Source: Candidatus Omnitrophota bacterium (GTDB lineage Bacteria; Omnitrophota; Gorgyraeia; Gygaellales; Profunditerraquicolaceae). Taken from it: a DNA stretch of 64,000 nt. The DNA lies in contig JBAZTA010000003.1 of NCBI GenBank assembly GCA_041662125.1, forward strand, positions 264,962-328,961, written 5' to 3'. Each line of letters starts with the position of its first letter. Positions within the stretch are counted from its first letter, which is position 1. The notes below the pieces were generated by a model, which worked only from the letters and a program-made list of their open reading frames with translations, was not told the origin of the DNA and did not search any database. Position numbers and translations under genes: made by a program. Shown one piece after another: positions 7,149 to 64,000 of this stretch.

Positions 7149-7217
7149 AGTTCTCCTCCTGAAATTATTCCAAAACTTTTGTTTCTTAACTCGAGAACGA
7201 TCCCTTGTAAAAACGGC

Positions 7218-8150: not shown

Positions 8151-8181
8151 TATTCAACCCACTAAATCCACGTATCCCGTT

Positions 8182-9318: not shown

Positions 9319-9348
9319 TATGATTATGTGTTTTTTTCATAAAGAACC

Positions 9349-10737: not shown

Positions 10738-10747
10738 AAAATATCCC

Positions 10748-15374: not shown

Positions 15375-15390
15375 GAATTTTAACCTTTCA

Positions 15391-23825: not shown

Positions 23826-23826
23826 A

Positions 23827-26362: not shown

Positions 26363-26372
26363 AACACCTTTT

Positions 26373-32231: not shown

Positions 32232-32259
32232 AGGTATTTTATCGCAGCAAGACTGCGCT

Positions 32260-37165: not shown

Positions 37166-37169
37166 GCTT

Positions 37170-42615: not shown

Positions 42616-45270
42616 TCAATCGGCGTCATCGTTTAACAAAAAAGCATATTTTCTTAAAAAATCCCTGCCGATCCTTGATAGCGAACCATATGAATAATGC
42701 GTAGGATTCATCAACGCTTTAAAACGGCTCTGCAGCAGTTCATCTTCTTTTCCATAGGTAAGCAAACCGTCTTTTTTATCTAACATTTCCAAGGCCAATT
42801 CACGGATATCAGCCGGAGTATTTTCGTGAGGGCTGGCCCCGGCCCGGACAAATAAATGGTCAAACAAAAAATGGCCAAGGGGTGATTGAAGAACCTCTTT
42901 GAAACGTAAATAGCGTTTTTCTTTTTCTGACCATATAAGTTTCGGGATTCCGATATCATCGGCCCCGTACGGCAGGGATCCGCAGAGATGCGCGTAATTA
43001 GCGATTGCCGCAGAAACACCAAAAATACTGGCAACGTGGTATAAACCGGAATCACTTCCCAGAAAAAATTTACAACTGGCGCAAAGAAAAACATCAAGCT
43101 GTTGGCTTTTATTTTTTGAATGCGCATAATCGATAACATGTTCCTGGTAAGGCAGCGGCTTCATGGTCGCATCACCCATACGCACAACCCATCCTCCCCT
43201 CTTCACAATAGCCTCAACCGCTAAAAGATAATTATTGATATCGGCGTTACGCAGCGACTGGTTAACCTGGCCAAGATACCCATCTTCCCGGCAATGCAGG
43301 CAGACAAACCATGCACCCTGCGGCATACCTTGTTCCTCAAGAAAGGCCTGCCCGCGTTTACGGTCAGTTTCGCTTAATTTCAGAAGCGGCGGACGGCTAG
43401 CGAATTTCTTTTGAATTTCAGGAAAATACGCTGCCCCTTCAGAAAAAGCAAAACGATACGTTGCATACCCGGTCAGTTGATTACGGGCCAGCGGCTCCAA
43501 TAACGAACAAAGCCAGGCAGAACGAATAATGCGAAGATATTTTTCCCAATATCCTAAAAGATGAGCGTTAGAAACCTTACCAGGATGCGCAAGAAGGATC
43601 GTATTGTATTGAGGCCTCATACCCAGTATACCCTCTTTCAGATAACCATCGATCTCAATACAAAGATGCCCAATCGCCCGCTCAGACAAATAAATAAATC
43701 TTACATTAAACAGCCTGCAGATCGGATAGCAAACGATACCTGCAGCCTGACAAAATACTTTATAAATAATCTGCTGCGCGGCTTTTCCCACACAATATAA
43801 AATCCCTTTTTCTTTTAATCTACGGATAAAATATTCATTCCGCAGCGATAATTCCAGCTGTTCAAGGTTATCCTTATGCCACAACCTTCGGCAGCGCTGC
43901 CAGGTCAATACGACAAAAGGAAAAACAAGCAGATTAACTGCTAAAAAACTCCAGGACATCCCCTCTACCCCATAACGACGCCCTAAAACAACCGTGCAGA
44001 AACCGGTAACAATACCAAAAGTTAATGATATCCATAAAAGCGGTTCTCTCTTATGCGCTCTTAAATAGGCGGAAAGCGGCAAGGTCAATGTTGAGATACC
44101 TTGTGCAGCCAGAAAAACAGCTACAGGTAACGGAGATAAAATACGCGATGAGAATGGGTGGCCCGCCTGGTAAAGCATAAATACCAAGAACCACACCATT
44201 ACAGAAACACCCGCGGTTATAACCGTAAAGATCCTCGTTGTCCTCCAAAAAAGCTCATCAAGTTTTTTATAATCTTTTCGGGCGATCAAAATCCCGAATT
44301 GGGGGACCCGGGGAGATAACCACGCTGCCGCGATACCGGCAATAGCGCCGATAACACTCCAGGTCATGCCAAATTGTCCAGCAATAACCGGCCCGTGATA
44401 CCGAAAAAGTATTGGAGTAAAAAGAGAAAAAACAAAATATCCGCTGATCCAACTCAGCGCTATCCTCCATTGCATAGGAAGGATCTCTTTGCGCCAGTCA
44501 ATACGGCATGCGGATGGCTTGGTAAAAAGAAGTGTTTTAATAAATCCGCTGTATCGATATTTAAAGAATATAACGGAACATATAATAATTGAAGCGACAG
44601 AAAGCGAAGCTGCCCACAATCGCGCGCCGGCAAGTATAGCGATCCAAACAGTTAAACTTGAAACTATTCCCTGCAGGAACCGGTATGTGTAAACCGAGGC
44701 AACTTGATTACAGCCCTCCAAGATTGACCACAGAGGGATGAAACAAACAATAATGCCGGTAAGAAAACACAGCGTAAACCAAGGTAATGGCCAATCCACA
44801 CTGGAAATTGCTGAATGCGAGAAAAAAACATATCCTCCCAGGCCTAAACCAAAAGCAATGATACATCCGCCAACCAGATACCAGCGGCTCGTAATATGCG
44901 CTAAACTGATTAACCGTGATAAAGCAGCACTATCTCCCGTAATACCCCGGTCTTTATCTAAACGTAATTTCGACCACTCGTGACTGGCGAATTGGATAAT
45001 AACGGTCCCCAGCCCTAATTCCACAAAAATTTGCAACGCTAACAAACTGCTGAAAGTATAATAATATCCCTGGTATTCAGGAGAAAAGCGAAGCGTTATT
45101 AATAACGCCGTCAACGGACCGGCAATAATACTCCACCCTCTGCTTAAAATTCCAAAAAAAACAGGGCGGTCAACCTCAAACTTTGACAAAAGATTGATTA
45201 TCCGGTCTTTAAACAAAACTGCGATCGATTTCTTTTTATAGAGGGCCGATTCCATCAGTTTAGATTTCAT
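42616..45270 (-). CDS. Fusion protein: N-terminal Wzx/MOP-like polytopic membrane domain + C-terminal soluble transferase-like domain
   Basis: 884 aa. Residues about 1-480 contain at least 12 hydrophobic helices. Residues about 480-884 are hydrophilic with conserved Cys/His and no canonical motif ('...GAWFVCLHCREDGYLG...FLGSDSGLYHV...'). Confidence 0.5.
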   Translation of the reverse strand: MKSKLMESALYKKKSIAVLFKDRIINLLSKFEVDRPVFFGILSRGWSIIAGPLTALLITLRFSPEYQGYYYTFSSLLALQIFVELGLGTVIIQFASHEWSKLRLDKDRGITGDSAALSRLISLAHITSRWYLVGGCIIAFGLGLGGYVFFSHSAISSVDWPLPWFTLCFLTGIIVCFIPLWSILEGCNQVASVYTYRFLQGIVSSLTVWIAILAGARLWAASLSVASIIICSVIFFKYRYSGFIKTLLFTKPSACRIDWRKEILPMQWRIALSWISGYFVFSLFTPILFRYHGPVIAGQFGMTWSVIGAIAGIAAAWLSPRVPQFGILIARKDYKKLDELFWRTTRIFTVITAGVSVMVWFLVFMLYQAGHPFSSRILSPLPVAVFLAAQGISTLTLPLSAYLRAHKREPLLWISLTFGIVTGFCTVVLGRRYGVEGMSWSFLAVNLLVFPFVVLTWQRCRRLWHKDNLEQLELSLRNEYFIRRLKEKGILYCVGKAAQQIIYKVFCQAAGIVCYPICRLFNVRFIYLSERAIGHLCIEIDGYLKEGILGMRPQYNTILLAHPGKVSNAHLLGYWEKYLRIIRSAWLCSLLEPLARNQLTGYATYRFAFSEGAAYFPEIQKKFASRPPLLKLSETDRKRGQAFLEEQGMPQGAWFVCLHCREDGYLGQVNQSLRNADINNYLLAVEAIVKRGGWVVRMGDATMKPLPYQEHVIDYAHSKNKSQQLDVFLCASCKFFLGSDSGLYHVASIFGVSAAIANYAHLCGSLPYGADDIGIPKLIWSEKEKRYLRFKEVLQSPLGHFLFDHLFVRAGASPHENTPADIRELALEMLDKKDGLLTYGKEDELLQSRFKALMNPTHYSYGSLSRIGRDFLRKYAFLLNDDAD

Positions 45271-47027: not shown

Positions 47028-48812
47028 TTATGTATTAACAGACGATTCGTGGGAGGCAACGATCATAGCTTCCCTGAACTCCCCACGATCCAAAAGCGGT
47101 TCAGAATCTTCTAACGCCCTGCCAAACTTCACTTGAGGCAATACCTTTTCATCAGTATGGATCTCAACATTACAAAAGGCCGGACAGTCTGTTTCAAGGG
47201 TATCGACTATTCCGGCGTTGAGATCCTTTTGAGCAGTGATCTGAGTTGTTTTATAACCATAAGCTTTCGCTACTTTAATAAAATCAGGAAATGCTAAGCC
47301 ACTTTCTACTGTAGAAGCAACATATCGGCTGGAAAACCATTGATCCTGCGTCTGTTTGATCATGCTGTACCCATGATTATTGATCAAGAATATCTTTATC
47401 GGTAGATCATGCCGTATAACAGTAGCAAGCTCCTGGATATTCATCTGTAAGCCCCCGTCACCGGTAACACATATTATACGTTTTTTCCCCAGTGCAAAAC
47501 AAGCCCCGATACTGGCCGGCAAAGCATACCCCATAGGAGTATTATTGAAAGCGCTGAAAAGCTTTTGTTTTTTCTTAAACTCAAAGCCTTGCGACATCCA
47601 CGCCACACTACAGCCGGTATCGAGAAATACAACATCACCTTCTTTAAGTTTTTCTGAGAGTCGTTTAACAAACACATAAGGATTAACTTTCTTTTCTTTC
47701 AACGCCTGCTGGCTGCACACCGGATATTTCTTCTTCCACAGGCCGATCTTTTTTACCCAGTCATGAATATCTTCCGGCACTGCCTGTTGAATTCTTTTAT
47801 GCATAGCCAAAAGGAATTCTTTGGCATCTTGATTGATCAAGAGTTCAACATCAAGGCCTAAAACTTTAAATTTCTTGAGTTCATGGATATCAACATCAAC
47901 AACGATCTTCTTGGCTTCCCGCGCGAATGTTGACAACGGAGAACCGGCTTCACGGGTATCCAGGCGTGCTCCGATAGAAAGGACCAGGTCAGCGTTTTGA
48001 ACAGCAAAGTTGCCATAGCGGCTCCCGTGTGTCCCAAAAGATCCGACTAAGAAAGGATGATGTTCAGGAAATAAATAACGCATAGCCCAGGTAGGAACAA
48101 CCGGGACCCTTACATCTTCGACAAAACGCAACGCTTCTTTTTCCGCGTTGGCAAGATAAACGCCCCACCCCAGAATTATAACAGGCCGTTCTGCTTTATG
48201 GAGCATACCGGCACAGGCATCGATCTGTTTTTGAAAAGCTGCAGTAGCAGTTCTTATTTTCGGAGGGATAAAAGATACTAAGCTATCCGGATCGATTTCC
48301 TGCCTTTGCAGGTTATCGGGAACATCGACCAAAACCGGCCCCGGCCTGCCGGACTTGGCAAGATATACGGCTTTTTCAAGTTCATAACGGATACGTTTAG
48401 CATCACGCACTTTAACCGCATATTTAGTGACCGGTTTAAAGATTTCAACCACATCAGTCTCCTGAAAGCCCAACTGCCGTATCCCTAAATTCCCTTTACA
48501 ACGAAAAGTCGCGACCTGGCCGGTTATAAAAAGCGTAGGAATAGAATCATAATACGAACAACAGACGCCCGTGAGCATATTCGTTGCTCCCGGCCCACTA
48601 GTCGAAATAGCGGCTCCCAAGTTCCCCGTAGCCCGGGAATATCCATCAGCAGCCATAGCGCACGCCTGTTCATGCTGCATGCATATATAGTCGATCCCTT
48701 TGGCCTTGGCAATTGAATCGATCAGATGAGCGGCAGCTCCGCCGGTTACGGCAAAAACATGCCTCATGCCCTGTTTCTTTAAAAAATATGCTATATAGTC
48801 AGACAGCTTCAT
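47028..48812 (-). CDS. Thiamin-diphosphate enzyme of the acetolactate-synthase-large-subunit family (YerE-like branched-sugar synthase candidate)
   Basis: 594 aa. N-terminal 'HVFAVTGGAAAHLIDSI...GPGATNMLTGV' Pyr domain. C-terminal ThDP motif 'GDGGLQMNIQELATV'. No ilvN/ilvC neighbours. Confidence 0.65.
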   Translation of the reverse strand: MKLSDYIAYFLKKQGMRHVFAVTGGAAAHLIDSIAKAKGIDYICMQHEQACAMAADGYSRATGNLGAAISTSGPGATNMLTGVCCSYYDSIPTLFITGQVATFRCKGNLGIRQLGFQETDVVEIFKPVTKYAVKVRDAKRIRYELEKAVYLAKSGRPGPVLVDVPDNLQRQEIDPDSLVSFIPPKIRTATAAFQKQIDACAGMLHKAERPVIILGWGVYLANAEKEALRFVEDVRVPVVPTWAMRYLFPEHHPFLVGSFGTHGSRYGNFAVQNADLVLSIGARLDTREAGSPLSTFAREAKKIVVDVDIHELKKFKVLGLDVELLINQDAKEFLLAMHKRIQQAVPEDIHDWVKKIGLWKKKYPVCSQQALKEKKVNPYVFVKRLSEKLKEGDVVFLDTGCSVAWMSQGFEFKKKQKLFSAFNNTPMGYALPASIGACFALGKKRIICVTGDGGLQMNIQELATVIRHDLPIKIFLINNHGYSMIKQTQDQWFSSRYVASTVESGLAFPDFIKVAKAYGYKTTQITAQKDLNAGIVDTLETDCPAFCNVEIHTDEKVLPQVKFGRALEDSEPLLDRGEFREAMIVASHESSVNT

Positions 48813-51390: not shown

Positions 51391-52455
51391 TTAAAAAGGG
51401 CCGGTAAAATTCTTATCCGGCACATCAAGGGGCGTTTCAGGATCAATACCCAGCGCTGATTCTGTCAGTTGAGACTTATTCAAAAGGCAGCGCACTTCAT
51501 TAACGATATCGATGGTCCGCGGATAATAATGGTTAGCCAATGCCCAGCTCGTTGGCGTAGGCACGTCAGGAAAAGCCAGGCGGCGCGGCGCTGCCTTAAG
51601 AGCAGCAAAACTCTTTTCTGACGCCAAAGCAATAATCTCAGCAGAAACGCCAAAACTTTTCCATGCCCCATCTACGACCAATAACCGTCCGGTCTTCTCC
51701 AGAGAGGCCGCTATCGCCTCTTCGTCAAGCGGCTTTATGGTCCGCAGATCAACTATTTCGATATCAATGCCATCTTCAGAGAGTAAACGAGCGGCTTTCA
51801 TCACTTCTAACGTCGTGTAGGATGAAGTCACCACCGTCACATCGCGGCCTATCTTCATAATACGCGCTTTTCCGATAGGAACCGTAAACATCTCTTTCGG
51901 GACATCGCCGAATGTTCCATGGAGCCAACGATGTTCAATATAGATTACCGGATTATCATCCTGGATAGCTGATATTAACAATCCTTTAGCATCCGAAGGA
52001 GTCGTGGGCATAACTACTTTAAGCCCGGGGATGTGCGCAAAAAGCGCTTGCAAGCTTTGAGAATGCTGCGGCCCCTGGCCCCATCCTCTGCCGACAAGCA
52101 GGCGTATCACTAAAGGCACGCTCATTTTTGAACCAAACATGTAATGCCATTTCGCGGCATTATTGATTATCTGGTCCAAAGATAAAAGCATAAAATCGAT
52201 CCGCTGGTGCGTCATGATCGGACGCATACCAACCAACGCAGAACCGATAGCTATACCAGTCATTGCGTTTTCTGCTACCGGCATATCTAAGACGCGCACT
52301 CGGCCAAACTTTTCCTGCAGGCCTAAGGTCGTCCCAAAAACACCTTTAGGGTCGGGAACACCTAATCCAATAATATAAACAGACGCATCAGACTCCATAC
52401 ATTGCGTAGTTGCTTCAAGCACTGCATTCGCGTATGTTATTTCTCTCGCCATCAA
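51391..52455 (-). CDS. Thiamin-diphosphate-dependent E1 beta-subunit-like protein (second copy)
   Basis: 354 aa. 'VYIIGLGVPDPKGVFGTTLGLQEKFG..RVLDMPVAENAMTGIAIG' is a typical E1-beta N-terminus. Confidence 0.7.
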   Translation of the reverse strand: MMAREITYANAVLEATTQCMESDASVYIIGLGVPDPKGVFGTTLGLQEKFGRVRVLDMPVAENAMTGIAIGSALVGMRPIMTHQRIDFMLLSLDQIINNAAKWHYMFGSKMSVPLVIRLLVGRGWGQGPQHSQSLQALFAHIPGLKVVMPTTPSDAKGLLISAIQDDNPVIYIEHRWLHGTFGDVPKEMFTVPIGKARIMKIGRDVTVVTSSYTTLEVMKAARLLSEDGIDIEIVDLRTIKPLDEEAIAASLEKTGRLLVVDGAWKSFGVSAEIIALASEKSFAALKAAPRRLAFPDVPTPTSWALANHYYPRTIDIVNEVRCLLNKSQLTESALGIDPETPLDVPDKNFTGPF

Positions 52456-52470
52456 ATATATTCCTCTTGG

Positions 52471-53436
52471 TTACGCATAAACACCGGTAAAAGCTTCACC
52501 CGGCTTCGGGAACGGGCTTTTTTGGGCAAAGCTAACGGCTTCATTGATCTCTAATTGGATACCAGTTTTATATTCATTAATGATCTTAGCAGTGATACTC
52601 CCCTTATGAAGCAACTTTCTCTGGTAGGTTTCCAGCGGACAACGCTTACACCAGCGGGAAAATTCAATTTCTGTCCGATAACCCAGTTCATTATCAAAGT
52701 TTGGGCCACAATGTTCCCTGAAACGATAGGTATCAAACTGCAAATAATACGGGCCCCTGAGGCTACGCGCGTACATAACAGCTTTTTTTGCAGCTTTAAA
52801 AACATATTCGACATCATTGCCGTCACCTTCTTCACCCTCAACACCAAAACCACGCGCAATCGAAAGATTATTACGTTTTTTAGGCTGACGCACGGAAAGC
52901 GGAGAATATACCGAAAAATAGTTATTTTCACAGACAAAGATCACAGGAAGTTTCTTAAGCGCGGCAAAATTCAAGCTTTCCGCGAACACCCCTTCTTCAG
53001 TAGCAGCATCGCCGAAAAATGCAACGCTGATAGAATGCTCTTTTTTCATCTGTATCCCAAAAGCGACACCCGCGGCAACAGGAATAATACCTGCGACAAT
53101 AGGAGTAGACCCCAGTATTCCGGCATCAAGATCAACCAAATGCATGGAACCGCCCTTGCCGCCTGAACACCCATTCTCTTTACCGTAAATCTCAGAGAAC
53201 ATAGCCTTAAGGCTTCCTCCCTTAGCAAGGTAATGGCCATGAGAACGATGATTGCTTAACACATAATCTTTTTTCAACAGATTCGCGCAGAGGCCAGCGG
53301 CAACTGCTTCCTGGCCGATACACAGATGCACCGGGCAGCGCATCTGCCACTGAGTATACACTCTGGCAATTGCCTCTTCAACCATGCGGATACGCAGCAT
53401 TTGGTAATACAAAGAAAGGGCGCTATCTTTTCTCAT
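52471..53436 (-). CDS. Thiamin-diphosphate-dependent E1 alpha-subunit-like protein (second copy)
   Basis: 321 aa. 'GQEAVAAGL'. ThDP motif 'FFGDAATEEGVFAESLN...CENNYFS'. Confidence 0.7.
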   Translation of the reverse strand: MRKDSALSLYYQMLRIRMVEEAIARVYTQWQMRCPVHLCIGQEAVAAGLCANLLKKDYVLSNHRSHGHYLAKGGSLKAMFSEIYGKENGCSGGKGGSMHLVDLDAGILGSTPIVAGIIPVAAGVAFGIQMKKEHSISVAFFGDAATEEGVFAESLNFAALKKLPVIFVCENNYFSVYSPLSVRQPKKRNNLSIARGFGVEGEEGDGNDVEYVFKAAKKAVMYARSLRGPYYLQFDTYRFREHCGPNFDNELGYRTEIEFSRWCKRCPLETYQRKLLHKGSITAKIINEYKTGIQLEINEAVSFAQKSPFPKPGEAFTGVYA

Positions 53437-54460: not shown

Positions 54461-55039
54461 TTACTCCTTCTTAGTATCGGCAATACTATCCAGCACATAA
54501 TGTAATAGAGAATGATGCATGATCTCTACATGGCTATATGCCTTTGCAGGCACATAAAAATTCAGGTCACCTGATGCGCGCAGCGGGTTCTCAGGAAGGA
54601 ATCCCGAAAAACTCACTACCAAGACTCCTTTCCTTCTGGCCGCTCTCACCGCAGCTAAAATATTGGGAGATTTCCCTGAGCTGCTGATCGCAACCAGGAT
54701 ATCGCCCTTATCCGCGAAAAGCTCAAGCGGTTTTTCAAACACATGGTCATAACCAAAATCGTTTGAGATACAGGTCAAAAGCGACGAATCATTAAAAGCT
54801 ATACCGCGGATACCCGCGTGCTTGGAAAAATCAACCGCCATGTGGCTGGAAATAGCCGCGCTGGCTCCGTTACCGATAAAGATAAGTTTTTTATTCCTGA
54901 GAGCGCAAGCCATAAACAAATCGGCAATTTTCTCAAAGCCTTTTTGCGTAGTAATTACCTTGCCGGTTTTATCCGTAATTATAATATTGTGCGTCAGCCC
55001 CCGTAAAACTTCATAGTAAGACTCGATTTTCTTATGCAT
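54461..55039 (-). CDS. gmhA: Sedoheptulose-7-phosphate isomerase (SIS domain, GmhA)
   Basis: 192 aa. 'LIFIGNGASAAISSHMAVDF' SIS phosphosugar-binding motif. 'SSSGKSPN'. Confidence 0.8.
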   Translation of the reverse strand: MHKKIESYYEVLRGLTHNIIITDKTGKVITTQKGFEKIADLFMACALRNKKLIFIGNGASAAISSHMAVDFSKHAGIRGIAFNDSSLLTCISNDFGYDHVFEKPLELFADKGDILVAISSSGKSPNILAAVRAARRKGVLVVSFSGFLPENPLRASGDLNFYVPAKAYSHVEIMHHSLLHYVLDSIADTKKE

Positions 55040-55044
55040 ATGAT

Positions 55045-56571
55045 TTATTTTAGTATAGTGGTAATAAATTTCTTAAGATCGATCGGGTCAACCGGGTCAC
55101 GGTTACAAATGATCTGCACCGCCAGCGCCCCGACCGCGTTCCCGATAAAAACGACTAAATCCTGAGGCACCCCCAATGCTACTAACGGCGCGGTAAAAGC
55201 AAAAAAAGCATCTCCCGCTCCGATCGGATCAACGACACTGGTAGCCAAAGCAGGAGCATTTAAAAACTCCTTTTTGTTATTAATGCTCAAAGCCCCAAAA
55301 CTTCCTCTGGTAATGATCAAATTATCACAATGGATCTTACGGGAGACCTTTTTCATGATTCCACCCAGCTCACCAGCCTTATCGTGGGCAGCATAGCGGA
55401 TCTCCAGTTCATCCAATGCCGCGTAATCAACATTAGAATAGCGGGTAATAAAATTAAAGCCCATATTCGCGCCGTTAGTCTGAGTATTCACCGCCAGAAA
55501 CTTTGCCTTTTTGCAGATGGACCGCGCCAGGTTATCAGACAAGAAGCCGTGCCCGAAATCAGAAACAACGACTAAATCATAATCCGAGACCATATGTTTT
55601 AATTTCGCCTGTATCTTCTTTTCCACGTCGTTGGGAAGCGGGGAATCATTCAAATAGCATATTTCAAAAAGTTTTTGGTTAGCGTTCACGAAACGGCGTT
55701 TTACGATCGTCTTACTATCAGGCCTTTCGAAATTAACCAGTTTAACGTTGGCCTTCATTTTCTCGCTCAAAAACCCGGCAAACGCTTTATTGTCGTTGCC
55801 TGAGAGCGTAACCAGCGTCACATCTTTTGCCAATCCCGCGATATGATTGGAAACAGCAAGAGATCCTCCGGCGAACGATTCTTCAGAGGCATACTTATAA
55901 ACAACGACATTGCTCTTGCGCGACTTATCAAGAGCTTCACAATAATGGTATTGATCAATAATAGCTTCCCCGATGACCAGGACTTTGAGTTTCTTGATCT
56001 TTTCCAGCGTTTCAAATATATAATCAAGTGGATACTGAGCTGCTATCCCTTTTAAATAAGCCCTGGTTTCTTCAGGAAAAACCTGCATATGCTCATTGAT
56101 CAATTTTGAAGAGCTAAAGGTTATATCATGGGTAAAAGCGATCCTGCCTCCGACAGAAACAATCGCTTCCTCTTCTTCTGAGATCTTGCCGGTAACATCT
56201 TTGCTCTTATTAACATAATCCTGGCCTTTCACATAGACATGGGGTTTAAGCATTTTTATGCATTCTGTGGCTGTGGGAGCAGGATTAATAGCGACATAAT
56301 CAACCGTACTAAACGCTGCCAAGGTCTCAGCGCGCAGGTTCTCATTAAAGATAGGCCTTCCCGGGCCTTTTCTGACAAACGGGTCAGAGGTTACGGTAAC
56401 GATCAAAACATCGCCTTCTTTTTTCGCGGAAGCAAGGTGACGGATATGGCCCGGATGGATCAGGTCAAAAACACCGTGGCAATGGACAACCGTCTTATTT
56501 TGTTTCTTTAAACCGGCGATAATGGTTTTGAGTTCCTGCAATTTCTTGATCTTCTTGTATATCTTTTCCAT
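55045..56571 (-). CDS. Bifunctional heptose-1-phosphate nucleotidyltransferase / heptose-7-phosphate kinase (HldE-like, inverted domain order)
   Basis: 508 aa. N-terminal cytidylyltransferase-like 'HCHGVFDLIHPGHIRHL' (RfaE domain-II type). C-terminal PfkB carbohydrate-kinase motif 'DPIGAGDAFFA'. Confidence 0.7.
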   Translation of the reverse strand: MEKIYKKIKKLQELKTIIAGLKKQNKTVVHCHGVFDLIHPGHIRHLASAKKEGDVLIVTVTSDPFVRKGPGRPIFNENLRAETLAAFSTVDYVAINPAPTATECIKMLKPHVYVKGQDYVNKSKDVTGKISEEEEAIVSVGGRIAFTHDITFSSSKLINEHMQVFPEETRAYLKGIAAQYPLDYIFETLEKIKKLKVLVIGEAIIDQYHYCEALDKSRKSNVVVYKYASEESFAGGSLAVSNHIAGLAKDVTLVTLSGNDNKAFAGFLSEKMKANVKLVNFERPDSKTIVKRRFVNANQKLFEICYLNDSPLPNDVEKKIQAKLKHMVSDYDLVVVSDFGHGFLSDNLARSICKKAKFLAVNTQTNGANMGFNFITRYSNVDYAALDELEIRYAAHDKAGELGGIMKKVSRKIHCDNLIITRGSFGALSINNKKEFLNAPALATSVVDPIGAGDAFFAFTAPLVALGVPQDLVVFIGNAVGALAVQIICNRDPVDPIDLKKFITTILK

Positions 56572-56575
56572 AACC

Positions 56576-57574
56576 TTATTCCTTACTTAAGAAATGAAAC
56601 CAATCTTTGGTGGCTTCGTTAATGGATTCAGGCGTCCATACCGGCGCCCTTTTCCAATAATCAATATTTTTCAGTAAAATCGAGACGCCTTTTTCCAAAG
56701 AAACTTCAGGCGACCATTTAAGTTTTGCCCTGATCTTTGCAATATCAGCAAACGTGCAATCAGGTTCACCCGGCCTTTTGGGAATATACGTAACCGGCCC
56801 CGCTAAAAGCTCAACCAGCCGCTTGACGCTATAGGTATTGCCGCTGCCAACATTGAATATTTCATTCCTACAATCTGACTCTGCCGCAGCAAGAAACGCA
56901 GATGCAACGTCTCCGGCATACGTAAAATCACGGGTTTGCAAACCATCCCCTACCACCGTAAAAGGTTTACCCGCCAATTTCTGAGCGAGAAATACGCCAA
57001 AAACTGCTCCATAGGTTCCCGAAGTACGAGACCGCGGGCCATACACATTAAACAACCGTAACGATACAACCGGCAATTTATATACCTGGCCCCAATGCAA
57101 CGCAATCGACTCTCCTAAATATTTAGTAAGCGCGTAAGGATACTGCGGCCGGATATCCGCAGTCTCAGGGGTGGGAAACGTATCAGGGATGCCATAACAA
57201 GATGATGAAGCGGTATACACAAACTTTGTAAGCTTGGGGCAAACTTGCCGGACAACTTCCAGGACACTTATTGTCCCATCAACATTAGCACGGTGATACG
57301 TCAGCGGATTAACGATCGAAGGGACAATATCTGCCAAAGCAGCCAAATGGAACACACAAGAAACATCTTTAAAATACGGCTTTATTTTCTTCATATCGTT
57401 TACATCTGACTCTACCAGAGTCAGCGCCGGATTACCTTTCAAAAAGTCAAGGTTATCAGGCCTACCCGTTGAGAAATTATCAATGACGCAAACCCGGTAC
57501 CCTTTTTCCAGCAATACTTCAGTTACGTGGCTGCCGATAAACCCGGCGCCGCCGGTAACAACCGCATTTTTCAT
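56576..57574 (-). CDS. NAD-dependent epimerase/dehydratase (GalE/UXS-like extended SDR)
   Basis: 332 aa. 'AVVTGGAGFIGSHVTEVLL'. 'DNFSTGRPDNL'. 'YALTKYLGE'. Confidence 0.7.
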   Translation of the reverse strand: MKNAVVTGGAGFIGSHVTEVLLEKGYRVCVIDNFSTGRPDNLDFLKGNPALTLVESDVNDMKKIKPYFKDVSCVFHLAALADIVPSIVNPLTYHRANVDGTISVLEVVRQVCPKLTKFVYTASSSCYGIPDTFPTPETADIRPQYPYALTKYLGESIALHWGQVYKLPVVSLRLFNVYGPRSRTSGTYGAVFGVFLAQKLAGKPFTVVGDGLQTRDFTYAGDVASAFLAAAESDCRNEIFNVGSGNTYSVKRLVELLAGPVTYIPKRPGEPDCTFADIAKIRAKLKWSPEVSLEKGVSILLKNIDYWKRAPVWTPESINEATKDWFHFLSKE

Positions 57575-58821
57575 ACTTTCTCCAGCACTTCTTTTGAATG
57601 AATTTTTAATTGAGGAATAGCGGTCACAAATTCACCTCCCCATTCCCGGATAAACGACATTTGTTCCATGATCTCTTCTTTAATGTTCCAGGGCAAGATC
57701 AAGACATAATCAGGCTTGGTTTCTTTTATTTTCTCCGGATTTTCAATAGGGATATGGCTTCCGGGGAGAAAACTCCCTTGTTTATGCGGATTTTTATCTA
57801 CCGTATAGGGAATATCAGCCGTACCTATACCGCAATAATTTAAAAATGTGTTTCCTTTCGCAGGGGCACCGTATCCAACAATAGTCTTTCGCTGGCGTTT
57901 AAGACCGGCGAGAAAATCAATGGTGTCTTGTTTAATCCTTTGCACGTTATTTTGGAATGCTCTATACGCATGAATACTGCCAAAACCGCCAGCCAATTCT
58001 TTAGCCTTGAGAGCAGATACCCTGTTTGAAACTCCTTTTTCCTGATCAGAGGAATGGCGAGCATAGATCCGTAACGACCCTCCATGAGTCGGCAGCTCTT
58101 CGACGTCAAATATCGTTAGCGCCTGTCGCGTAAATATTTTTTCTACGGTAATAAAAGAAAGGTAGGAAAAATGCTCATGATAAATAGTATCAAATTGATT
58201 ACCCTGGACCAGCTGCATCAAATGTGGGAATTCCATCGTAATAACTCCCGCCGGCTTTAAAAGGATCTTCAGGCCTTTGACGAAATCATTGATATCCGGG
58301 ACATGCGCCAGGACATTATTGCCTACCAGCAGGTCGGCAGCAAACCCTTCCTCTTTTAACCGTTTGGCAGTGGCTTCGCTAAAAAAAATCACTTGCGTAG
58401 GAACGCCGCTGCGATTAGCAACTAAAGCGACATTAGCCGCCGGTTCGATCCCCAGGACAGGGATCCCCTTATCGATAAAATTCTTCAACAGGCAACCATC
58501 ATTGCTGGCTATTTCAACAACTCGCGAGGTCCCGGAAAGAGAAAACATGCTCGCCATTTGATCAGCGTAAGCTTTTGTGTGTTTAAGCCAGGTATCTGAA
58601 TAAGAAGAAAAATAAGCATAATCGCTGAAGATCTTCTCCGGGCTTTCATATTCAGGAAGCTGCACCAGGAAACAATCCCCGCAGACATAAACATCCAACG
58701 GGAAACGAAGCTCTTTACGCTGCACATCTTGCTTACGCAAAAAGGCATTTGATAACGCAGACTCCCCCAGAGAGACAAAAAGAGTTTCTAATCTGCTGCT
58801 ACAAAACCTGCACTGCATCAA
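57571..58821 (-). CDS. NDP-hexose C-methyltransferase (TylC3-type), second copy
   Basis: 416 aa. 'CRFCSSRLETLFVSLGESALSNAF' N-terminal zinc-ribbon/substrate region of the C-methyltransferase family. Confidence 0.65.
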   Translation of the reverse strand: MMQCRFCSSRLETLFVSLGESALSNAFLRKQDVQRKELRFPLDVYVCGDCFLVQLPEYESPEKIFSDYAYFSSYSDTWLKHTKAYADQMASMFSLSGTSRVVEIASNDGCLLKNFIDKGIPVLGIEPAANVALVANRSGVPTQVIFFSEATAKRLKEEGFAADLLVGNNVLAHVPDINDFVKGLKILLKPAGVITMEFPHLMQLVQGNQFDTIYHEHFSYLSFITVEKIFTRQALTIFDVEELPTHGGSLRIYARHSSDQEKGVSNRVSALKAKELAGGFGSIHAYRAFQNNVQRIKQDTIDFLAGLKRQRKTIVGYGAPAKGNTFLNYCGIGTADIPYTVDKNPHKQGSFLPGSHIPIENPEKIKETKPDYVLILPWNIKEEIMEQMSFIREWGGEFVTAIPQLKIHSKEVLEKV

Positions 58822-58836
58822 TATATAAAGTAGGAT

Positions 58837-59610
58837 TTATTTCCATATTTTCCAAGGCGCCTCATCAGATCTCCAGAGCCTATCTAACTCAACCTTGTCG
58901 CGCAACGTATCCATGCATTTCCAAAACCCGCCGTGCTTGTAAGCGTTAAGTTGTTTACGCGTCGATAATTGTTCCAAAGACTCTTTCTCCCAAATACTCT
59001 CATCATTCTTGATATAATCAAATACTCCCGGTTCCAATACAAAAAACCCGCCATTAACCCAGTCACCATCTCCTTGGGGCTTTTCCCGAAACGAAAGGAC
59101 ATTATGCTTATCATCTAAAGCCAGCGCTCCAAAACGGGCATACGGTTTGACCGCGGTAACGGTCGCGAGTTTTCCTTTCTTTTTATGAAACTCCACAAGT
59201 TTCTTTATGTTAACGTTGCTGACGCCGTCGCCGTAAGTCAACATGAACGTATTATCCGCGATGTAATTTTTGATACGTTTGATCCTGCCTCCTGTCATCG
59301 TATTTAAGCCCGTATCAATCAGCGTAACTTTCCATGGCTCTGCTTTTGACCCCAAAACTTTAATTTTATTCTTCTCTAAATCAATGGTCACATCGCTGGA
59401 ATGTAAAAAGATATTCGCGAAATATTCTTTGATCATAAACCCCTTATATCCAAGGCATATAATAAAATCGTTAAAACCATAACTTGAAAAAATCTTCATA
59501 ATGTGCCACAGGATCGGCTTCTCTCCAATTTCTACCATTGGCTTGGGCTTTAAATCGGTTTCTTCGCTTAAACGAGACCCGATCCCACCAGCTAAAATAA
59601 CCACTTTCAT
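58837..59610 (-). CDS. rfbF: Glucose-1-phosphate cytidylyltransferase
   Basis: 257 aa. 'VVILAGGIGSRLSEETDLKPKPMVEIGEKPILWHIM' is highly characteristic of the RfbF/DdhA family. Confidence 0.8.
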   Translation of the reverse strand: MKVVILAGGIGSRLSEETDLKPKPMVEIGEKPILWHIMKIFSSYGFNDFIICLGYKGFMIKEYFANIFLHSSDVTIDLEKNKIKVLGSKAEPWKVTLIDTGLNTMTGGRIKRIKNYIADNTFMLTYGDGVSNVNIKKLVEFHKKKGKLATVTAVKPYARFGALALDDKHNVLSFREKPQGDGDWVNGGFFVLEPGVFDYIKNDESIWEKESLEQLSTRKQLNAYKHGGFWKCMDTLRDKVELDRLWRSDEAPWKIWK

Positions 59611-59770
59611 TCTTATGCTCCTTTTAAGATCACAACCTTCTGCACCTCAAAAGATTACAACAAAATTCTCTCCACCGCTTTATATGCTTATTAAATGCAG
59701 CTTAATTTATGCAAGAAAATATCCCTTTTTTTGTTTAGAAACTAACGAGTTTCGAGACAAATATCGTTAT

Positions 59771-59798
59771 ATTATACCGCTCCAAGCAAACAAATCAA
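59771..59798 (-). promoter_or_regulatory. Candidate sigma70-type promoter TTGATT-N16-TATAAT (minus strand) upstream of rfbF
   Basis: Reverse complement of the gap reads 'cTTGATTtgtttgcttggagcggTATAATataac'. Located about 160 nt upstream of the rfbF start. A GAAACT-aacg-AGTTTC hairpin lies in the leader. Confidence 0.35.
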
Positions 59799-59811
59799 GC
59801 TTTTTAGATAT

Positions 59812-59970
59812 TTAGAACAAAGTATAAATAAACGGGGCAACGCTAGAAGACTCAAAGAAAATAATGAGGAATCCAAGCAATAACAACATGATAACAATAG
59901 GGGTAAGCCACCAGCGTTTCCTTACTTTTAAGAAATCCCACAATTCTTTAACTAACGCTATCTTTCCCAT
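59812..59970 (-). CDS. Small single-TM protein, SxtK/DUF5989-like (conserved carbamoyltransferase-associated ORF; absent from the ORF track)
   Basis: Hand-translated 52 aa: MGKIALVKELWDFLKVRKRWWLTPIVIMLLLLGFLIIFFESSSVAPFIYTLF. Conserved '...WxFLKxRKxWWLxPI...APFIYTLF' pattern. Confidence 0.6.
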   Translation of the reverse strand: MGKIALVKELWDFLKVRKRWWLTPIVIMLLLLGFLIIFFESSSVAPFIYTLF

Positions 59971-59981
59971 AAAAACTCCTT

Positions 59982-60383
59982 TTAATACTGTTTTTCAAAA
60001 TTTCCCTCTTCCCCATTTTCAGGATTACTCACCCAGTATGAAGATCCCGGTTTGGCTGTCTTTACATCCAGAAACTCTTTGCGCAGTGCCTTCATCACAA
60101 AACTAAGAGGAAACAATATACCATAAAAAATGCCAAAAAGTATGATCCGAATATTAAGCCAGCTAAGAACAGTACCAATCTTGACTGCCAGGAAATAATC
60201 AAAACGCATGTATCGGGGCAAGAAAACCGCGCAAATCAAAACAACAAGAGCGCAAACATTAAAACAAAAAGACAAAAGCATATTTCCTTGCAGAAATTTA
60301 AGTATACCCCACAATAACAGTAAAACGGCCGTTGATAGACCAAATCTCTTTACTTTAGAAAGTTCAATCCGGTTCAAATTCAT
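59982..60383 (-). CDS. SxtJ-like small membrane protein (carbamoyltransferase-associated)
   Basis: 133 aa, 3-4 TM segments. 'KRFGLSTAVLLLLWGIL'. Overlaps the carbamoyltransferase stop by 20 nt. Sits between the carbamoyltransferase and the SxtK-like ORF. Confidence 0.5.
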   Translation of the reverse strand: MNLNRIELSKVKRFGLSTAVLLLLWGILKFLQGNMLLSFCFNVCALVVLICAVFLPRYMRFDYFLAVKIGTVLSWLNIRIILFGIFYGILFPLSFVMKALRKEFLDVKTAKPGSSYWVSNPENGEEGNFEKQY

Positions 60384-62193
60384 TACTCTTTCCTCTCTTA
60401 TTCAAAGGTTTTTGCTGTTGAGCCTTATCTACCAGAAAACTACCCATCATAAGATAATCCATATCAGTGCGCATAAAACACTCATAGGCTTCTTGAGGTG
60501 AACAAACAATTGGCTCTCCCCGCACATTAAATGAAGTATTGATCACCATAGGGCAAGCCGTCAAAGAATAAAACTCGTTAATCAGATCGTAAAACAACCA
60601 ATTAGATTCTAACGTGACAGTTTGCAGGCGCGCCGAATAATCGACGTGAGTAACCGCCGGGATCTCTGATCTTTTAATCTTCAACTTATTTATTCCCGAG
60701 AGCCTGTTTTGCTCTTCACGGATAGGAAGGCGCAATCTTTCCTTAAGAGGGACCGTCATAAGCATATAGGGGCTATCGCCGTCAAAATCAAAGTAGTCCC
60801 TCGCTTTATCAGCTAATACCGCCGGCGCGAAAGGACGAAACGATTCCCTGAATTTGATCTTAACGTTAAGCATTGACTGCATGGTAAGGCTGCGAGGATC
60901 CGCTACAATAGACCGGTTGCCTAAAGCGCGCGGGCCAAATTCCATTCGCCCCTGAAACCAACCCAAAACTTTTTGCTCGGCAATGATCCGGGCAGCTACC
61001 TTTGCTTGCTGCACCCTTTCTATAGCCTCATAAACAACCCCCTGTTCTTTGAGGAAAACCTCGATCTTGGCATTACTGAACTCAGGCCCCAGTAACGACG
61101 AACGCATCGCGTCATGGACGCCATCAGCAAGCCTTTCTTTTCTTAAATACCCATACCATGCCGCAAACGCTGCCCCCAGAGCGCCTCCTGCGTCTGTCGC
61201 AGCAGGCTGCACCCATATTTTCTTAAAAGGGCCGTCTTTGGCGATCAAACCGTTAGCCACGCAATTTAAGGCGACACCTCCTGCCAGGCACAAATATTTC
61301 TGGCCTGTTTGTCTATAGACATGCCGCGCGATTTTAAGCATTATTTCTTCAGTCACGGCCTGTATTGAACGGGCAATATCCATATGGCGCTGTTCCAGAA
61401 CGTCTTTATCCGGCCTGCGGGGTTTTCCGCCGAATAAAACGTGGAATTTATTATTGGTCATGGTTAAACCAACACAATAATTAAAATATTTCATATTTAA
61501 CTGAAACGAGCCATCTTCTTTTATATCCACCAATTCTTTTTTAATTACGTCAACATAGGCTGGTTCTCCGTAAGGCGCTAACCCCATAAGCTTATATTCG
61601 CCGGAATTCACGCGAAACCCGACATAGTAAGTAAATGCTGAATAAAGCAGCCCTAACGAATGAGGGAATTTGATCTGTTCAACAAGCGATATACGATTCC
61701 CTTTTCCAATTCCAAAACTGGCAGTCACCCATTCACCCACCCCATCCATAGTTAAAATCGCTGCTTCCTCGAATGGGCTGGGATAAAAGGCGCTTGCCGC
61801 GTGAGATTCATGGTGGCCGTTAAACAATATCCGGGGATGGTGTGAAACTTTTTCTTCAATGAGGCTTTTTATGAATAGTTTTTGCTTAGCCCATACGGGC
61901 ATCGATTTTGAAAAAGAAAGAAAACCGCGGGGGGCATACTGAAAATACGTCGCAAGAAGCCTTTCAAATTTTATAAAAGGCTTTTCGTAAAAACTAATAT
62001 AGTTTATTTCTTGGGGACTGATACCTACTTCACGCAGGCAATAGGAGATCGCCTGTTCAGGAAAATCCGCGTCATGCTTTTTACGGGTAAACCGCTCTTC
62101 CTGGGCTGCGGCAATGATCACACCGTTTTTCAAGAGGGCGGCGGCAGAATCATGATAAAAGGCAGATATTCCCAGGATATAAATATCGCGCAT
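60364..62193 (-). CDS. O-carbamoyltransferase, NodU/CmcH family
   Basis: 'ILGISAFYHDSAAALLKNGVIIAAAQEERFTRKKHD' is the canonical N-terminus of the NodU/CmcH/TobZ family. About 609 aa. Start trimmed to 'MRDIYILG'. Confidence 0.8.
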   Translation of the reverse strand: MRDIYILGISAFYHDSAAALLKNGVIIAAAQEERFTRKKHDADFPEQAISYCLREVGISPQEINYISFYEKPFIKFERLLATYFQYAPRGFLSFSKSMPVWAKQKLFIKSLIEEKVSHHPRILFNGHHESHAASAFYPSPFEEAAILTMDGVGEWVTASFGIGKGNRISLVEQIKFPHSLGLLYSAFTYYVGFRVNSGEYKLMGLAPYGEPAYVDVIKKELVDIKEDGSFQLNMKYFNYCVGLTMTNNKFHVLFGGKPRRPDKDVLEQRHMDIARSIQAVTEEIMLKIARHVYRQTGQKYLCLAGGVALNCVANGLIAKDGPFKKIWVQPAATDAGGALGAAFAAWYGYLRKERLADGVHDAMRSSLLGPEFSNAKIEVFLKEQGVVYEAIERVQQAKVAARIIAEQKVLGWFQGRMEFGPRALGNRSIVADPRSLTMQSMLNVKIKFRESFRPFAPAVLADKARDYFDFDGDSPYMLMTVPLKERLRLPIREEQNRLSGINKLKIKRSEIPAVTHVDYSARLQTVTLESNWLFYDLINEFYSLTACPMVINTSFNVRGEPIVCSPQEAYECFMRTDMDYLMMGSFLVDKAQQQKPLNKRGKSNEFEPD

Positions 62194-62198
62194 AAGTT

Positions 62199-63296
62199 TT
62201 ACTTCTTTCGTTTCATACGCTCTTTCCAAGCGGCATAGATCTCTCGCACGGAATCTTCAAGGGTATAGGTATGCTTCCATGCAGGATACTGTTCTTTAAA
62301 CTTGGAAACATCACTGATCCACCAAATATGGTCACCTTGACGAGGTACAGCGGCATAGTGGCAGCTCATTTTATCCCCCGAAACCTTTTCGCAAAGCGCA
62401 CGTGCCTCCCGGATTGAAACATGAGCAAAGCGCCCGCCTCCGATGTTATAAACTTCGCCCTGCCGCGGTTTTTTATAAAACTGATAAAAGGCAGAAACCA
62501 GATCGTAGGCGTGTATAGTATCACGGACCTGTTTACCTTGGTAACCGTTGATCACGTAGGTGCGTTTTGAAATACAGCATTGAACCATATATGACAAAAA
62601 CCCATGCATTTTGACTCCGGACTGAGCAGGGCCACTCACACATCCAAGCCTAAAAACGCCTGTTTTAAGGCCGAAATATTTTCCATATTCCTGAGTCATC
62701 ATATCAGCTGAAAGCTTAGATACTCCCATTAAACTATGCATACATTGATCAACGGGCATTGTTTCATTAATGCCTTTATAATAGGCATGCCTTTTCGACA
62801 GGTCATAACGACTCTCTGATTCTTCAAAAGGCAGATCATTTGGCCTGTCGCCATAAACTTTATTGGTAGAAGTAAGGATAAATACTGCGCGGGGACAATG
62901 TCGCCTCAGCGCCTCTAGTATACCTACTGTCGAACGGGCATTAATATCAAAATCAACCAGCGGCGCTGATGCAGCCCAATCATGAGACGGTTGAGCTGCC
63001 GTGTGAACGACTAATTGTATAGAACTTTTATACTTCTTAAAAAGTGAATTGATCTTATTTTGGTCGCGGATATCAAACCAAGCCTGGCGGTACCGGGGAA
63101 GATCCTTCACAAGCATATCGCGGGTTTTGAGTATACTGCCGCCCTTGCCAAAAAAGGTTTGACGCATGTTATTATCGATCCCAATTACATCAAAGCCTTT
63201 TTCACAAAAAAAACGGGCTGTCTGGGAACCGATGAGCCCGCAAGAGCCAGTAACTATTACGATTGGCACGATTTCAAGTCTCCAGTCTCTGAGCAA
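62199..63296 (-). CDS. CDP-paratose/tyvelose 2-epimerase-family (RfbE-like) extended SDR
   Basis: 365 aa. 'STNKVYGD' and 'NGYQGKQVRDTIHAYDLV...YNIGGG' match RfbE signature stretches. Confidence 0.65.
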   Translation of the reverse strand: MLRDWRLEIVPIVIVTGSCGLIGSQTARFFCEKGFDVIGIDNNMRQTFFGKGGSILKTRDMLVKDLPRYRQAWFDIRDQNKINSLFKKYKSSIQLVVHTAAQPSHDWAASAPLVDFDINARSTVGILEALRRHCPRAVFILTSTNKVYGDRPNDLPFEESESRYDLSKRHAYYKGINETMPVDQCMHSLMGVSKLSADMMTQEYGKYFGLKTGVFRLGCVSGPAQSGVKMHGFLSYMVQCCISKRTYVINGYQGKQVRDTIHAYDLVSAFYQFYKKPRQGEVYNIGGGRFAHVSIREARALCEKVSGDKMSCHYAAVPRQGDHIWWISDVSKFKEQYPAWKHTYTLEDSVREIYAAWKERMKRKK

Positions 63297-63306
63297 ACCT
63301 GAAAAT

Positions 63307-64000
63307 TTAACGGTTCTTGTAAAAAGCTGAAATATCTTCGCGTTTACTCGATAACCACTCTTGATGCTTGCGGCACCAGATGATAGTCGAACGTAATCCG
63401 GCAGGCAAATTAACCCTGGCTTTCCAGGCGATCTGGCGTTTCAGTTTCGATGAATCAAGGCGATAACGTATATCGTGGCCAGGCCTGTCTTTGACAAATT
63501 CTATCCTGCTCTGAGGAAGCGTTAAAATCGATAAGATCATTTTTGCTACTTCAATATTTTGTTTTTCGATACCGCTTCCCAGATTATAAACTTCGCCAAC
63601 GGTACCTTTCTTCATAATAGTAAGGATACCCAAAGCGCAATCTTCAACATAAAGCCATTCACGGACGTTTTTACCGTCCGCGTAAAGCGGCATTTTCTCA
63701 TTATGGAATAATTTCATGACCGAAAGGGGGATAAATTTCTCCGGATACTGCCAGGGCCCATAATTATTGCTGGGCCGAATGATGATCGCAGGAAAACGAT
63801 AGGTGCGCACATATGATTTTATCAGCAGGTCGGCAGCTGCCTTGGAAGCCGCATAGGGGCTGCTCGGATTAAGGGGGTCATTTTCAACAAATTTACCGCG
63901 CGCAATATCGCCATAGACCTCATCAGTTGAAATATGCACAAAACGTTTTACCCCAAACATGCGGGAAACAGCCAAAAGGACTTCTGTCCCGAGAATATTT
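63307..64000 (-). CDS. rmlB: dTDP-glucose 4,6-dehydratase (partial; N-terminus beyond window edge)
   Basis: 'HISTDEVYGD', 'SPYAASKAAADLL', 'SNNYGPWQYPEKFIP' RmlB motifs. The reading frame stays open to position 64000 ('NILGTEVLLAVSRMFG...'), so the gene is 5'-truncated. Confidence 0.8.
   Translation of the reverse strand, partial: NILGTEVLLAVSRMFGVKRFVHISTDEVYGDIARGKFVENDPLNPSSPYAASKAAADLLIKSYVRTYRFPAIIIRPSNNYGPWQYPEKFIPLSVMKLFHNEKMPLYADGKNVREWLYVEDCALGILTIMKKGTVGEVYNLGSGIEKQNIEVAKMILSILTLPQSRIEFVKDRPGHDIRYRLDSSKLKRQIAWKARVNLPAGLRSTIIWCRKHQEWLSSKREDISAFYKNR

Follow-up and report, generated by a model that had tools for sequence, protein, structure and literature searches.

The closest described relatives of the locus examined here lie in saxitoxin biosynthesis clusters, where the carbamoyltransferase gene sxtI adjoins sxtJ and sxtK, two short open reading frames (ORFs) of unknown function that are presumed to act with it. 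This triad has been noted in saxitoxin clusters since 2008; sxtL, which encodes a GDSL protein, comes after sxtK, and GPRALGRS has been described as the putative catalytic site of SxtI. Here we analyse a matching triad in a 64,000-nucleotide (64-kb) stretch of DNA, hereafter the window, from a metagenome-assembled genome of a Candidatus Omnitrophota bacterium (contig JBAZTA010000003.1, positions 264,962 to 328,961). Its three genes encode an O-carbamoyltransferase (CT), a small membrane protein of the SxtJ family and a 52-residue microprotein of the DUF5989 family. We propose, with a probability that we put at roughly 0.42, that the triad is a conserved and portable three-gene carbamoylation module, the products of which would form a stoichiometric inner-membrane complex that places the CT at a membrane-associated, probably lipid-linked acceptor.

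Two other groups of systems invite comparison. WapO (PA5005) is a putative NodU-type CT that has been assigned to the lipopolysaccharide core of Pseudomonas aeruginosa, a lipid-anchored glycan, and CarB supplies the carbamoyl phosphate on which it depends. For carbamoylation of a glycan at the inner membrane, and for a membrane-anchored acceptor, no better precedent was found; its operon is wapO-wapH-mig14-dnpA, and no SxtJ or DUF5989 partners are mentioned for it. The O-acetylation machines that combine MBOAT or AT3 proteins with periplasmic SGNH/AlgX proteins, and the ArnE/ArnF and GtrA proteins, are analogies only: the shared plan would be a cytoplasmic acyl-type donor, one or more small or multi-pass membrane partners and a membrane-anchored SGNH/AlgX-like protein, the genes for which often occur together. 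We found no similarity in sequence or fold between SxtJ or DUF5989 and MBOAT, AT3, SMR or GtrA proteins, and the SGNH partner is absent from the window.

The likeness to the saxitoxin triad, which a sequence-only reading of the window had pointed out together with the lack of a known function for SxtJ and SxtK, agrees with the saxitoxin literature and extends to near-identical gene sizes: both triads encode, in order, a CT, a protein of about 134 residues and one of about 54, from genes of 1839, 405 and 165 bp in the sxt cluster and 1830, 402 and 159 bp in the window. The 133-residue window protein moreover matches the Pfam SxtJ family. To judge from its matching size (165 bp) and gene order, SxtK is a putative DUF5989 member. 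The resemblance ends with the triad, however. Pfam scans of nearly all window ORFs of at least 120-150 residues did not find the core sxt genes (those for the SxtA-type polyketide-synthase-like protein, the SxtG amidinotransferase, SxtB/D/S/T/H and others) and found only sugar-nucleotide, methyltransferase, radical S-adenosylmethionine (SAM), glycosyltransferase and nonulosonic-acid genes. The triad has sugar-nucleotide and glycan genes for neighbours, its host is not a cyanobacterium, and an alkaloid is an unlikely acceptor in this organism.

Results

The three genes and their products

The triad genes run on the minus strand in the order CT, SxtJ, DUF5989 (Table 1). As the sequence-only reading had it, the first encodes a CT of the NodU/CmcH family: the protein matches Carbam_trans_N (PF02543; E 1.3e-101, 341 bits, profile positions 2-345 of 346) and Carbam_trans_C (PF16861; E 3.5e-71, 238.7 bits, positions 1-170 of 170), both over essentially the full profile and above the gathering score. 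It also aligns over its full length with the solved enzymes GdmN (7vyj, E 4.8e-94), NovN and TobZ (E 4.8e-94 to 2e-75), with which it shares the two-domain architecture of a Kae1-like (Kae1/ASKHA-like) and a YrdC-like part. The metal-binding HHxxH motif is kept (HHESHAAS aligned to HHEAHAYS of GdmN), as is GPRALG (EFGPRALGNRS aligned to EFGPRALGHRS). Because of this full-length match to solved enzymes and the retention of both motifs, the CT is very probably an active enzyme. Its assignment as a NodU orthologue was rejected, since the NCBIfam model NF041651 gave a partial match of 150.6 bits against an equivalog cut-off of 1000. The CT could alternatively start at a TTG at 62229, which would give 621 residues, but the starts of homologues line up with the ATG.

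CTs found beside DUF5989 in other phyla are 51-64% identical to that of the window. The clade carries a basic insertion of about 21 residues (the KERLRLPIREEQNRLSGINKLKIKRS region, residues ~478-518) between the motifs SPYML and THVD, which GdmN lacks; of 137 clade members 130 have it, and in 115 of the 137 the spacing between the two motifs is a constant 41 residues. The insertion was considered as a docking site for SxtJ or DUF5989 and rejected, since it does not co-vary with them: six of the seven CTs without it keep both partners. One metagenome ORF (locus L113, 3986-5971, 661 residues) continues in frame from the CT into the last hydrophobic helix and tail of SxtJ (..KTYW..YEKQF). This locus has no DUF5989 downstream and its CT is missing the clade-specific insertion; we read it as a natural fusion of CT and SxtJ or else as a locus in decay.

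The 52-residue ORF, found by hand in the sequence-only reading, is present with an identical sequence. It matches Pfam DUF5989 (PF19451) with 81.6 bits against a gathering score of 27 (profile positions 2-49 of 49), and 706 homologues were retrieved at E<=1e-3, the nearest of them 85% identical. In an alignment of the family 22 of the 52 columns are invariant, and the window protein has the conserved residue in all 22, which include E9, W11, F13, R17-K18, W20-W21-L22, P24-I25 and the terminal P-F-x-Y-T-L-F. It shows the full family signature of E-x-W-x-F...R-K-x-W-W-L-x-P-I, one transmembrane helix and a C-terminal A-P-F-I-Y-T-L-F. Pairwise differences across 80 loci from many phyla at codon positions 1, 2 and 3 are 0.36, 0.14 and 0.62; because differences at third positions far exceed those at second positions, the ORF is under purifying selection. 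Its homologues, invariant columns, codon pattern and predicted structure together mark it as a real gene. An AlphaFold2 model predicts a helix at residues 2-16, a break at RKRWW, a transmembrane helix at 23-41 and a short C-terminal helix at 45-51. By the positive-inside rule the K/R-rich N-terminus would be cytoplasmic, with the invariant tail pointing outward. No match to DUF5989 was found in 50,697 phage records.

The SxtJ-family protein is the most divergent of the three. The hidden Markov model (HMM) search that had been proposed as a check places it, like the microprotein, above the gathering score, although marginally so (PF19588; 26.5 bits against 24.4, E 1.1e-5). A word-indexed search retrieved only the window protein itself; an exhaustive HMMER search brought up 1109 cluster representatives at E<=1e-3, essentially all of 115-149 residues and aligned end to end, the best of which is only 34% identical. 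The family is about 30% identical across phyla, compared with 50-85% for the microprotein and 51-64% for the CT. In its profile, positions 14-31, 38-55 and 80-97 are hydrophobic; the amphipathic stretch 57-79 keeps P, Y, W and G-W-x-N-T-R, and the charged tail bears a near-invariant S-Y-W and closes with Y-E-[KR]-Q-[FY]. The window protein has the corresponding P56, SWLNIR (a weaker match to G-W-x-N-T-R), FP (T-P in the family), SSYW and a C-terminal FEKQY, and its gene adjoins the CT and DUF5989 genes as family members do elsewhere. The AlphaFold2 model (pLDDT 88.9) has helices at 8-31, 35-54 and 56-100, and the conserved tail with SYW...EKQY is modelled at low confidence. A conserved aromatic C-terminus is common to the two small proteins (Y-E-[KR]-Q-F/Y in SxtJ, A-P-F-I-Y-T-L-F in DUF5989). 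If SxtJ is oriented N-in/C-out, the conserved tails of both would be periplasmic.

The window triad is already named in NCBI, and there is very little new in it for this window taken alone. The identical 52- and 133-residue proteins are recorded there as 'DUF5989 family protein' and 'SxtJ family membrane protein' of Candidatus Omnitrophota bacterium, both genes having been called on an independent assembly; the microprotein gene, described as unannotated in the sequence-only reading, was so only with respect to the ORF list available to that reading. NCBIfam has no model for the SxtJ or the DUF5989 protein.

Coupling of the genes and their transcription unit

The ATG of the SxtJ gene lies inside the 3' end of the CT gene, an overlap of 20 nt that agrees with the overlap described in the sequence-only reading, and a purine-rich sequence resembling a Shine-Dalgarno site, GAGAGGAAAGAG, lies upstream of it. 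Ahead of the DUF5989 ORF stands TAAAAGGAGTTTTTATG, where a consensus AAGGAG and the SxtJ stop codon TAA (59982-59984) overlap. The CT itself starts 5 nt past the stop of an NAD-dependent epimerase/dehydratase gene, which is in turn preceded by a dTDP-glucose-dehydratase-like gene. The epimerase/dehydratase gene and the CT form one transcription unit, which in this genome connects the triad with the sugar island; on the independent assembly the RmlD-like, dehydratase, epimerase, CT, SxtJ and DUF5989 genes stand in the identical order. Past the DUF5989 stop there is a gap of 201 nt, and because a promoter-like match lies within it, upstream of the next gene, there is a weak suggestion that the triad closes a transcription unit. 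A scan for terminators past the DUF5989 ORF found nothing, and an Rfam scan of 58700-64000 gave no match.

Linkage of the triad across genomes

The linkage was examined from both ends. With DUF5989 as the seed and each species represented by a single genome, at least 567 loci were confirmed, and with the CT as the seed in metagenomes, 599; 80 loci of each set were kept for study. The 80 DUF5989-seeded loci come from more than ten phyla in all and include Omnitrophota, Planctomycetota, Acidobacteriota, Nitrospirota, Nitrospinota, Gemmatimonadota, Elusimicrobia, Bacteroidota, Acidimicrobiia and Patescibacteria as well as several proteobacterial classes. A CT lies beside the microprotein in about 64 of them and SxtJ in 65, so the claim that DUF5989 proteins ending in APFIYTLF accompany CTs holds for this CT clade at most loci. 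From the CT side, both partners were found at 57 of 80 loci, the flanks were too short to judge at eight and the contig end cut the locus at four; SxtJ with demonstrably no DUF5989 downstream occurred at six, and a CT alone at one, the sole evaluable locus with neither partner. Two gene orders exist, CT-J-K (as in the window and the sxt clusters) and J-K-CT, and the trio is intact in both. The median spacers are 9 nt from J to K (n=102), -7 nt from CT to J (n=65) and about 0 nt from K to CT (n=43).

The DUF5989 microprotein also occurs outside the triad: there are loci at which neither CT nor SxtJ lies within 10 kb. DUF5989 loci without a CT include L023, L025, L026, L034, L050, L052, L060, L062, L063, L069 and L073. 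At L050, L060 and L062 the microprotein gene stands beside SGNH genes, and at L023, L034 and L069 (Nitrospina, Omnitrophota) beside genes for small family-2 glycosyltransferases (GT2) of the polyprenyl-phosphate type, GT9 heptosyltransferase-like proteins or O-antigen-ligase-like proteins.

A frequent SGNH neighbour and a copy in Sinorhizobium

Neighbouring genes were judged in three ways, by clustering, with a purpose-built HMM and by a Pfam survey of the 105 genes that flank the loci most closely, and the results agree. One neighbour alone is enriched, an AlgX-like SGNH/GDSL protein anchored in the membrane, about 320-450 residues long and with intact GDS and DxxH motifs; it is found at 33 of the 80 DUF5989 loci and 25 of the 80 CT loci and accounts for 14 of the 105 nearest flanking genes. 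Loci that bear it include L010, L020, L043, L044, L048, L050, L060, L062, L066, L070, L074, L077 and L080, and its position mirrors that of sxtL in the saxitoxin cluster. The purpose-built HMM found no SGNH homologue in the whole window. Glycosyltransferases are the next commonest neighbours (5/105), and many flanks are housekeeping genes such as those for SecG, adenylate kinase and S-adenosylhomocysteine hydrolase. Because the flanking genes are variable and often housekeeping genes, the triad is a portable unit that often stands outside glycan clusters.

A copy of the module is carried by the pSymB replicon of Sinorhizobium meliloti, strain 1021 included, where it lies at about 483.2-486.4 kb (positions 6788-10990 of our locus L082, taken from NC_003078.1, and 7788-11990 of L083, from CP073680.1). 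There an SGNH/GDSL gene (442 residues) lies divergently upstream of genes for an SxtJ-like protein (143 residues), DUF5989 (49 residues) and the CT (610 residues); in one record the small genes are labelled only 'hypothetical protein'. In all, 43 plasmids with DUF5989 were found, mostly from Sinorhizobium and Ensifer. Literature searches found no functional data on the S. meliloti module genes, no functional data from experimental work on SxtJ or SxtK, and no mention of DUF5989.

The surrounding glycan island

The window is taken up by a very large glycan island on a single strand, and the triad sits close to its upstream end; positions 470-63975 are coded on the minus strand throughout, and the GC skew is negative throughout. 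The genes after the triad encode a glucose-1-phosphate cytidylyltransferase-like protein, a sugar C-methyltransferase and HldE-like and GmhA-like proteins of the heptose pathway, the heptose synthesis genes lying about 4 kb from the CT. The island also contains genes for E1 alpha/beta components, a thiamine-pyrophosphate (TPP) enzyme, methyltransferases, glycosyltransferases, a Wzx-like flippase, nonulosonic-acid synthesis and several radical-SAM enzymes. Seven sizeable island ORFs, one of them of 884 residues, have no Pfam match at E<=1e-5 (or 1e-3).

Table 1. Features of the carbamoyltransferase triad and the surrounding glycan island (window coordinates)
Feature	Position	Strand	Description	Basis
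O-carbamoyltransferase (CT), NodU/CmcH/TobZ/GdmN family	60364-62193	minus	609 residues from ATG (MRDIYILG...)	Pfam; homology to solved structures
SxtJ-family small membrane protein	59982-60383	minus	133 residues	Pfam SxtJ; NCBI name
DUF5989 microprotein	59812-59970	minus	52 residues; N-terminal amphipathic helix, RKRWW, one transmembrane helix, C-terminal APFIYTLF	Pfam DUF5989
Shine-Dalgarno AAGGAG	59976-59981	minus	5 nt ahead of DUF5989 ATG	Read from sequence
NAD-dependent epimerase/dehydratase gene	62199-63296	minus		Pfam Epimerase, E 1.9e-34
Sigma-70-like promoter match	59771-59798	minus	TTGATT-16-TATAAT, 10/12 matches, weak	Consensus scan alone
Glucose-1-phosphate cytidylyltransferase-like gene	58837-59610	minus	Next gene after triad	
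Sugar C-methyltransferases (two)	57571-58821; 35918-37216	minus		
HldE-like bifunctional protein	55045-56571	minus	Domains reversed: cytidylyltransferase-like N-terminal, PfkB kinase C-terminal	
GmhA-like SIS protein	54461-55039	minus	Adjoins HldE-like gene	
E1 alpha/beta genes	52471-53436; 51391-52455; 29277-30206	minus		
YerE-like TPP enzyme	47028-48812	minus		
Nonulosonic-acid gene, PseB-like	23827-24828	minus		
Nonulosonic-acid gene, DegT	22668-23840	minus		
Nonulosonic-acid gene, CMP-transferase	18569-19342	minus		
Nonulosonic-acid gene, WbqC	16800-17519	minus		
Nonulosonic-acid gene, NeuB	14313-15428	minus		
SPASM radical-SAM genes (two)	13299-14300; 12283-13302	minus		
Wzx-like flippase	10748-12259	minus		
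B12-radical-SAM genes (two)	9349-10737; 2776-4275	minus		
ORFs without Pfam match	42616-45270; 39503-40756; 31140-32309; 28342-29280; 24917-26455; 17516-18559; 8182-9318	minus		

Discussion

GdmN, NovN and TobZ are soluble enzymes that act on soluble antibiotics, and their structures were solved as single molecules. Catalysis in the family therefore needs neither SxtJ nor the microprotein, which points to a targeting or coupling role for these two proteins where they occur; we think it unlikely that either is catalytic. Apart from its insertion, the window CT differs from the solved enzymes in that it travels with two membrane proteins. Both are predicted to be helical, and in the window the 20-nt overlap and the consensus Shine-Dalgarno site amount to tight coupling. 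By homology to TobZ and GdmN, the CT would be cytoplasmic, would make carbamoyl-adenylate from carbamoyl phosphate and ATP, and would then move the carbamoyl group onto a hydroxyl. SxtJ and DUF5989 would be produced in fixed proportion with it from the overlapping or near-abutting genes, and we infer that the two most likely come together in a small complex of the inner membrane, with about four transmembrane helices, which may hold the otherwise soluble CT at the membrane. The acceptor would most probably be a lipid-linked sugar or an envelope glycan intermediate, and in this genome possibly a sugar from the surrounding island. All that was observed is compatible with the proposal of the sequence-only reading that the conserved membrane duo may target or couple carbamoylation at the membrane.

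Several observations weigh against a membrane-placing complex of this kind. The conserved tails of the small proteins (SSxVAPFIYTLF in DUF5989 and SYW...YE[KR]QF in SxtJ), if periplasmic as predicted, would not be explained by a simple cytoplasmic tether, and the topology of SxtJ is itself ambiguous, its net charge favouring N-in/C-out with three spans while its termini and tail are rich in K and R. The substrate of SxtI, from a matching triad, is believed to be a soluble alkaloid, and in the saxitoxin literature a physical complex of CT, J and K is only hypothesised. DUF5989 occurs without a CT or SxtJ within 10 kb at about 12 of the 80 loci, those 12 having adequate flanks, and about six CT-SxtJ loci have no DUF5989; the partnership is therefore not obligatory. 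Finally, the 105 genes nearest to the module are mostly not glycan genes. This last point bears also on the earlier suggestion that the glycan of this island is O-carbamoylated. That is plausible from the position of the CT, 5 nt past an epimerase/dehydratase gene and inside a sugar island, but is weakened because the module is portable and the CT is 51-64% identical across phyla. Judged from sequence conservation, a constraint from a conserved acceptor or partner would fit the CT better than the tailoring of one variable glycan.

The probably periplasmic tails are the starting point of a different account, in which SxtJ and DUF5989 would be a conduit or flippase-like unit through which a lipid-linked sugar that bears the carbamoyl group, or that group itself, would reach the periplasmic side of the membrane, where a membrane-anchored SGNH/AlgX-like enzyme, if present, might finish the job, by analogy with O-acetylation by MBOAT/AT3 and SGNH proteins or with small flippases of the ArnE/F and GtrA types. 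We consider this unlikely, even though a good deal of what we found would sit well with it: the SGNH/AlgX-like protein is the sole enriched neighbour of the module, its gene lies divergently beside the module on S. meliloti pSymB as sxtL follows sxtK, three DUF5989 loci without a CT have SGNH genes and others have GT2 genes of the polyprenyl-phosphate type, the C-terminal tails, probably periplasmic by charge distribution, are the most conserved parts of both small proteins, and three helices from SxtJ and one from DUF5989 would make a four-helix unit like the SMR- and GtrA-type proteins. Yet the window has no SGNH homologue, most loci have none nearby, and the topology of SxtJ is ambiguous. 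To our knowledge, moreover, there is no known chemistry for moving a carbamoyl group across a membrane. Also quite unlikely, in our estimation, is that the two small proteins serve as subunits (assembly factors) that stabilise or regulate the CT and have no part in the choice of a membrane substrate. In that case the acceptor might be soluble, decarbamoyl-saxitoxin having been suggested as the substrate of SxtI, and the duo might connect synthesis with export. The high conservation of the CT clade (51-64% identity) whatever its genomic context and the tight translational coupling of the genes would be accommodated by such a role, but the membrane location of both partners would be needless for a purely soluble reaction, DUF5989 is also present without a CT, and the papers found contain no experimental test of the idea.

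A functional link of some kind is, by contrast, hard to avoid. That the small ORFs are unrelated to the CT, their adjacency inherited by chance, or that the 52-residue ORF is not a gene, might be argued from the few loci with CT and SxtJ only or with DUF5989 alone, and from the SxtJ score in the window, which is barely above threshold. We regard it as very improbable and as effectively refuted by the conservation data: the genes co-occur in both search directions, in many phyla and through a rearrangement of gene order; the microprotein has its 22 invariant columns, its excess of third- over second-position differences (0.62 vs 0.14) and a consensus Shine-Dalgarno site before its ORF; and SxtJ has 1109 relatives of the same length.

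What is new here comes from the comparison across phyla, and consists of the contrast in identity between CT, microprotein and SxtJ, the frequent SGNH fourth partner, the DUF5989 loci without a CT and the portability of the module. The module that encodes SxtJ and the ultra-conserved DUF5989 occurs in at least 567 species-representative genomes from many phyla. A more far-reaching possibility, and in our view a rather improbable one, is that CT, SxtJ and DUF5989, often with the SGNH/AlgX-like protein, make up a previously unrecognised trans-envelope carbamoylation system in which the small proteins, beyond anchoring the CT, would offer a lipid-linked acceptor at the periplasmic face or carry it there, or else pass on the carbamoyl group to that side. 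If that were true, the system would be the carbamoyl counterpart of the MBOAT/AT3-SGNH O-acetylation machines, with a conserved component of the cell envelope as its target in hundreds of bacterial species, S. meliloti included. The copy on pSymB of strain 1021 makes the role of the J and K proteins and the target of the CT testable in a tractable host, as opposed to uncultured Omnitrophota or slow-growing, toxic cyanobacteria.

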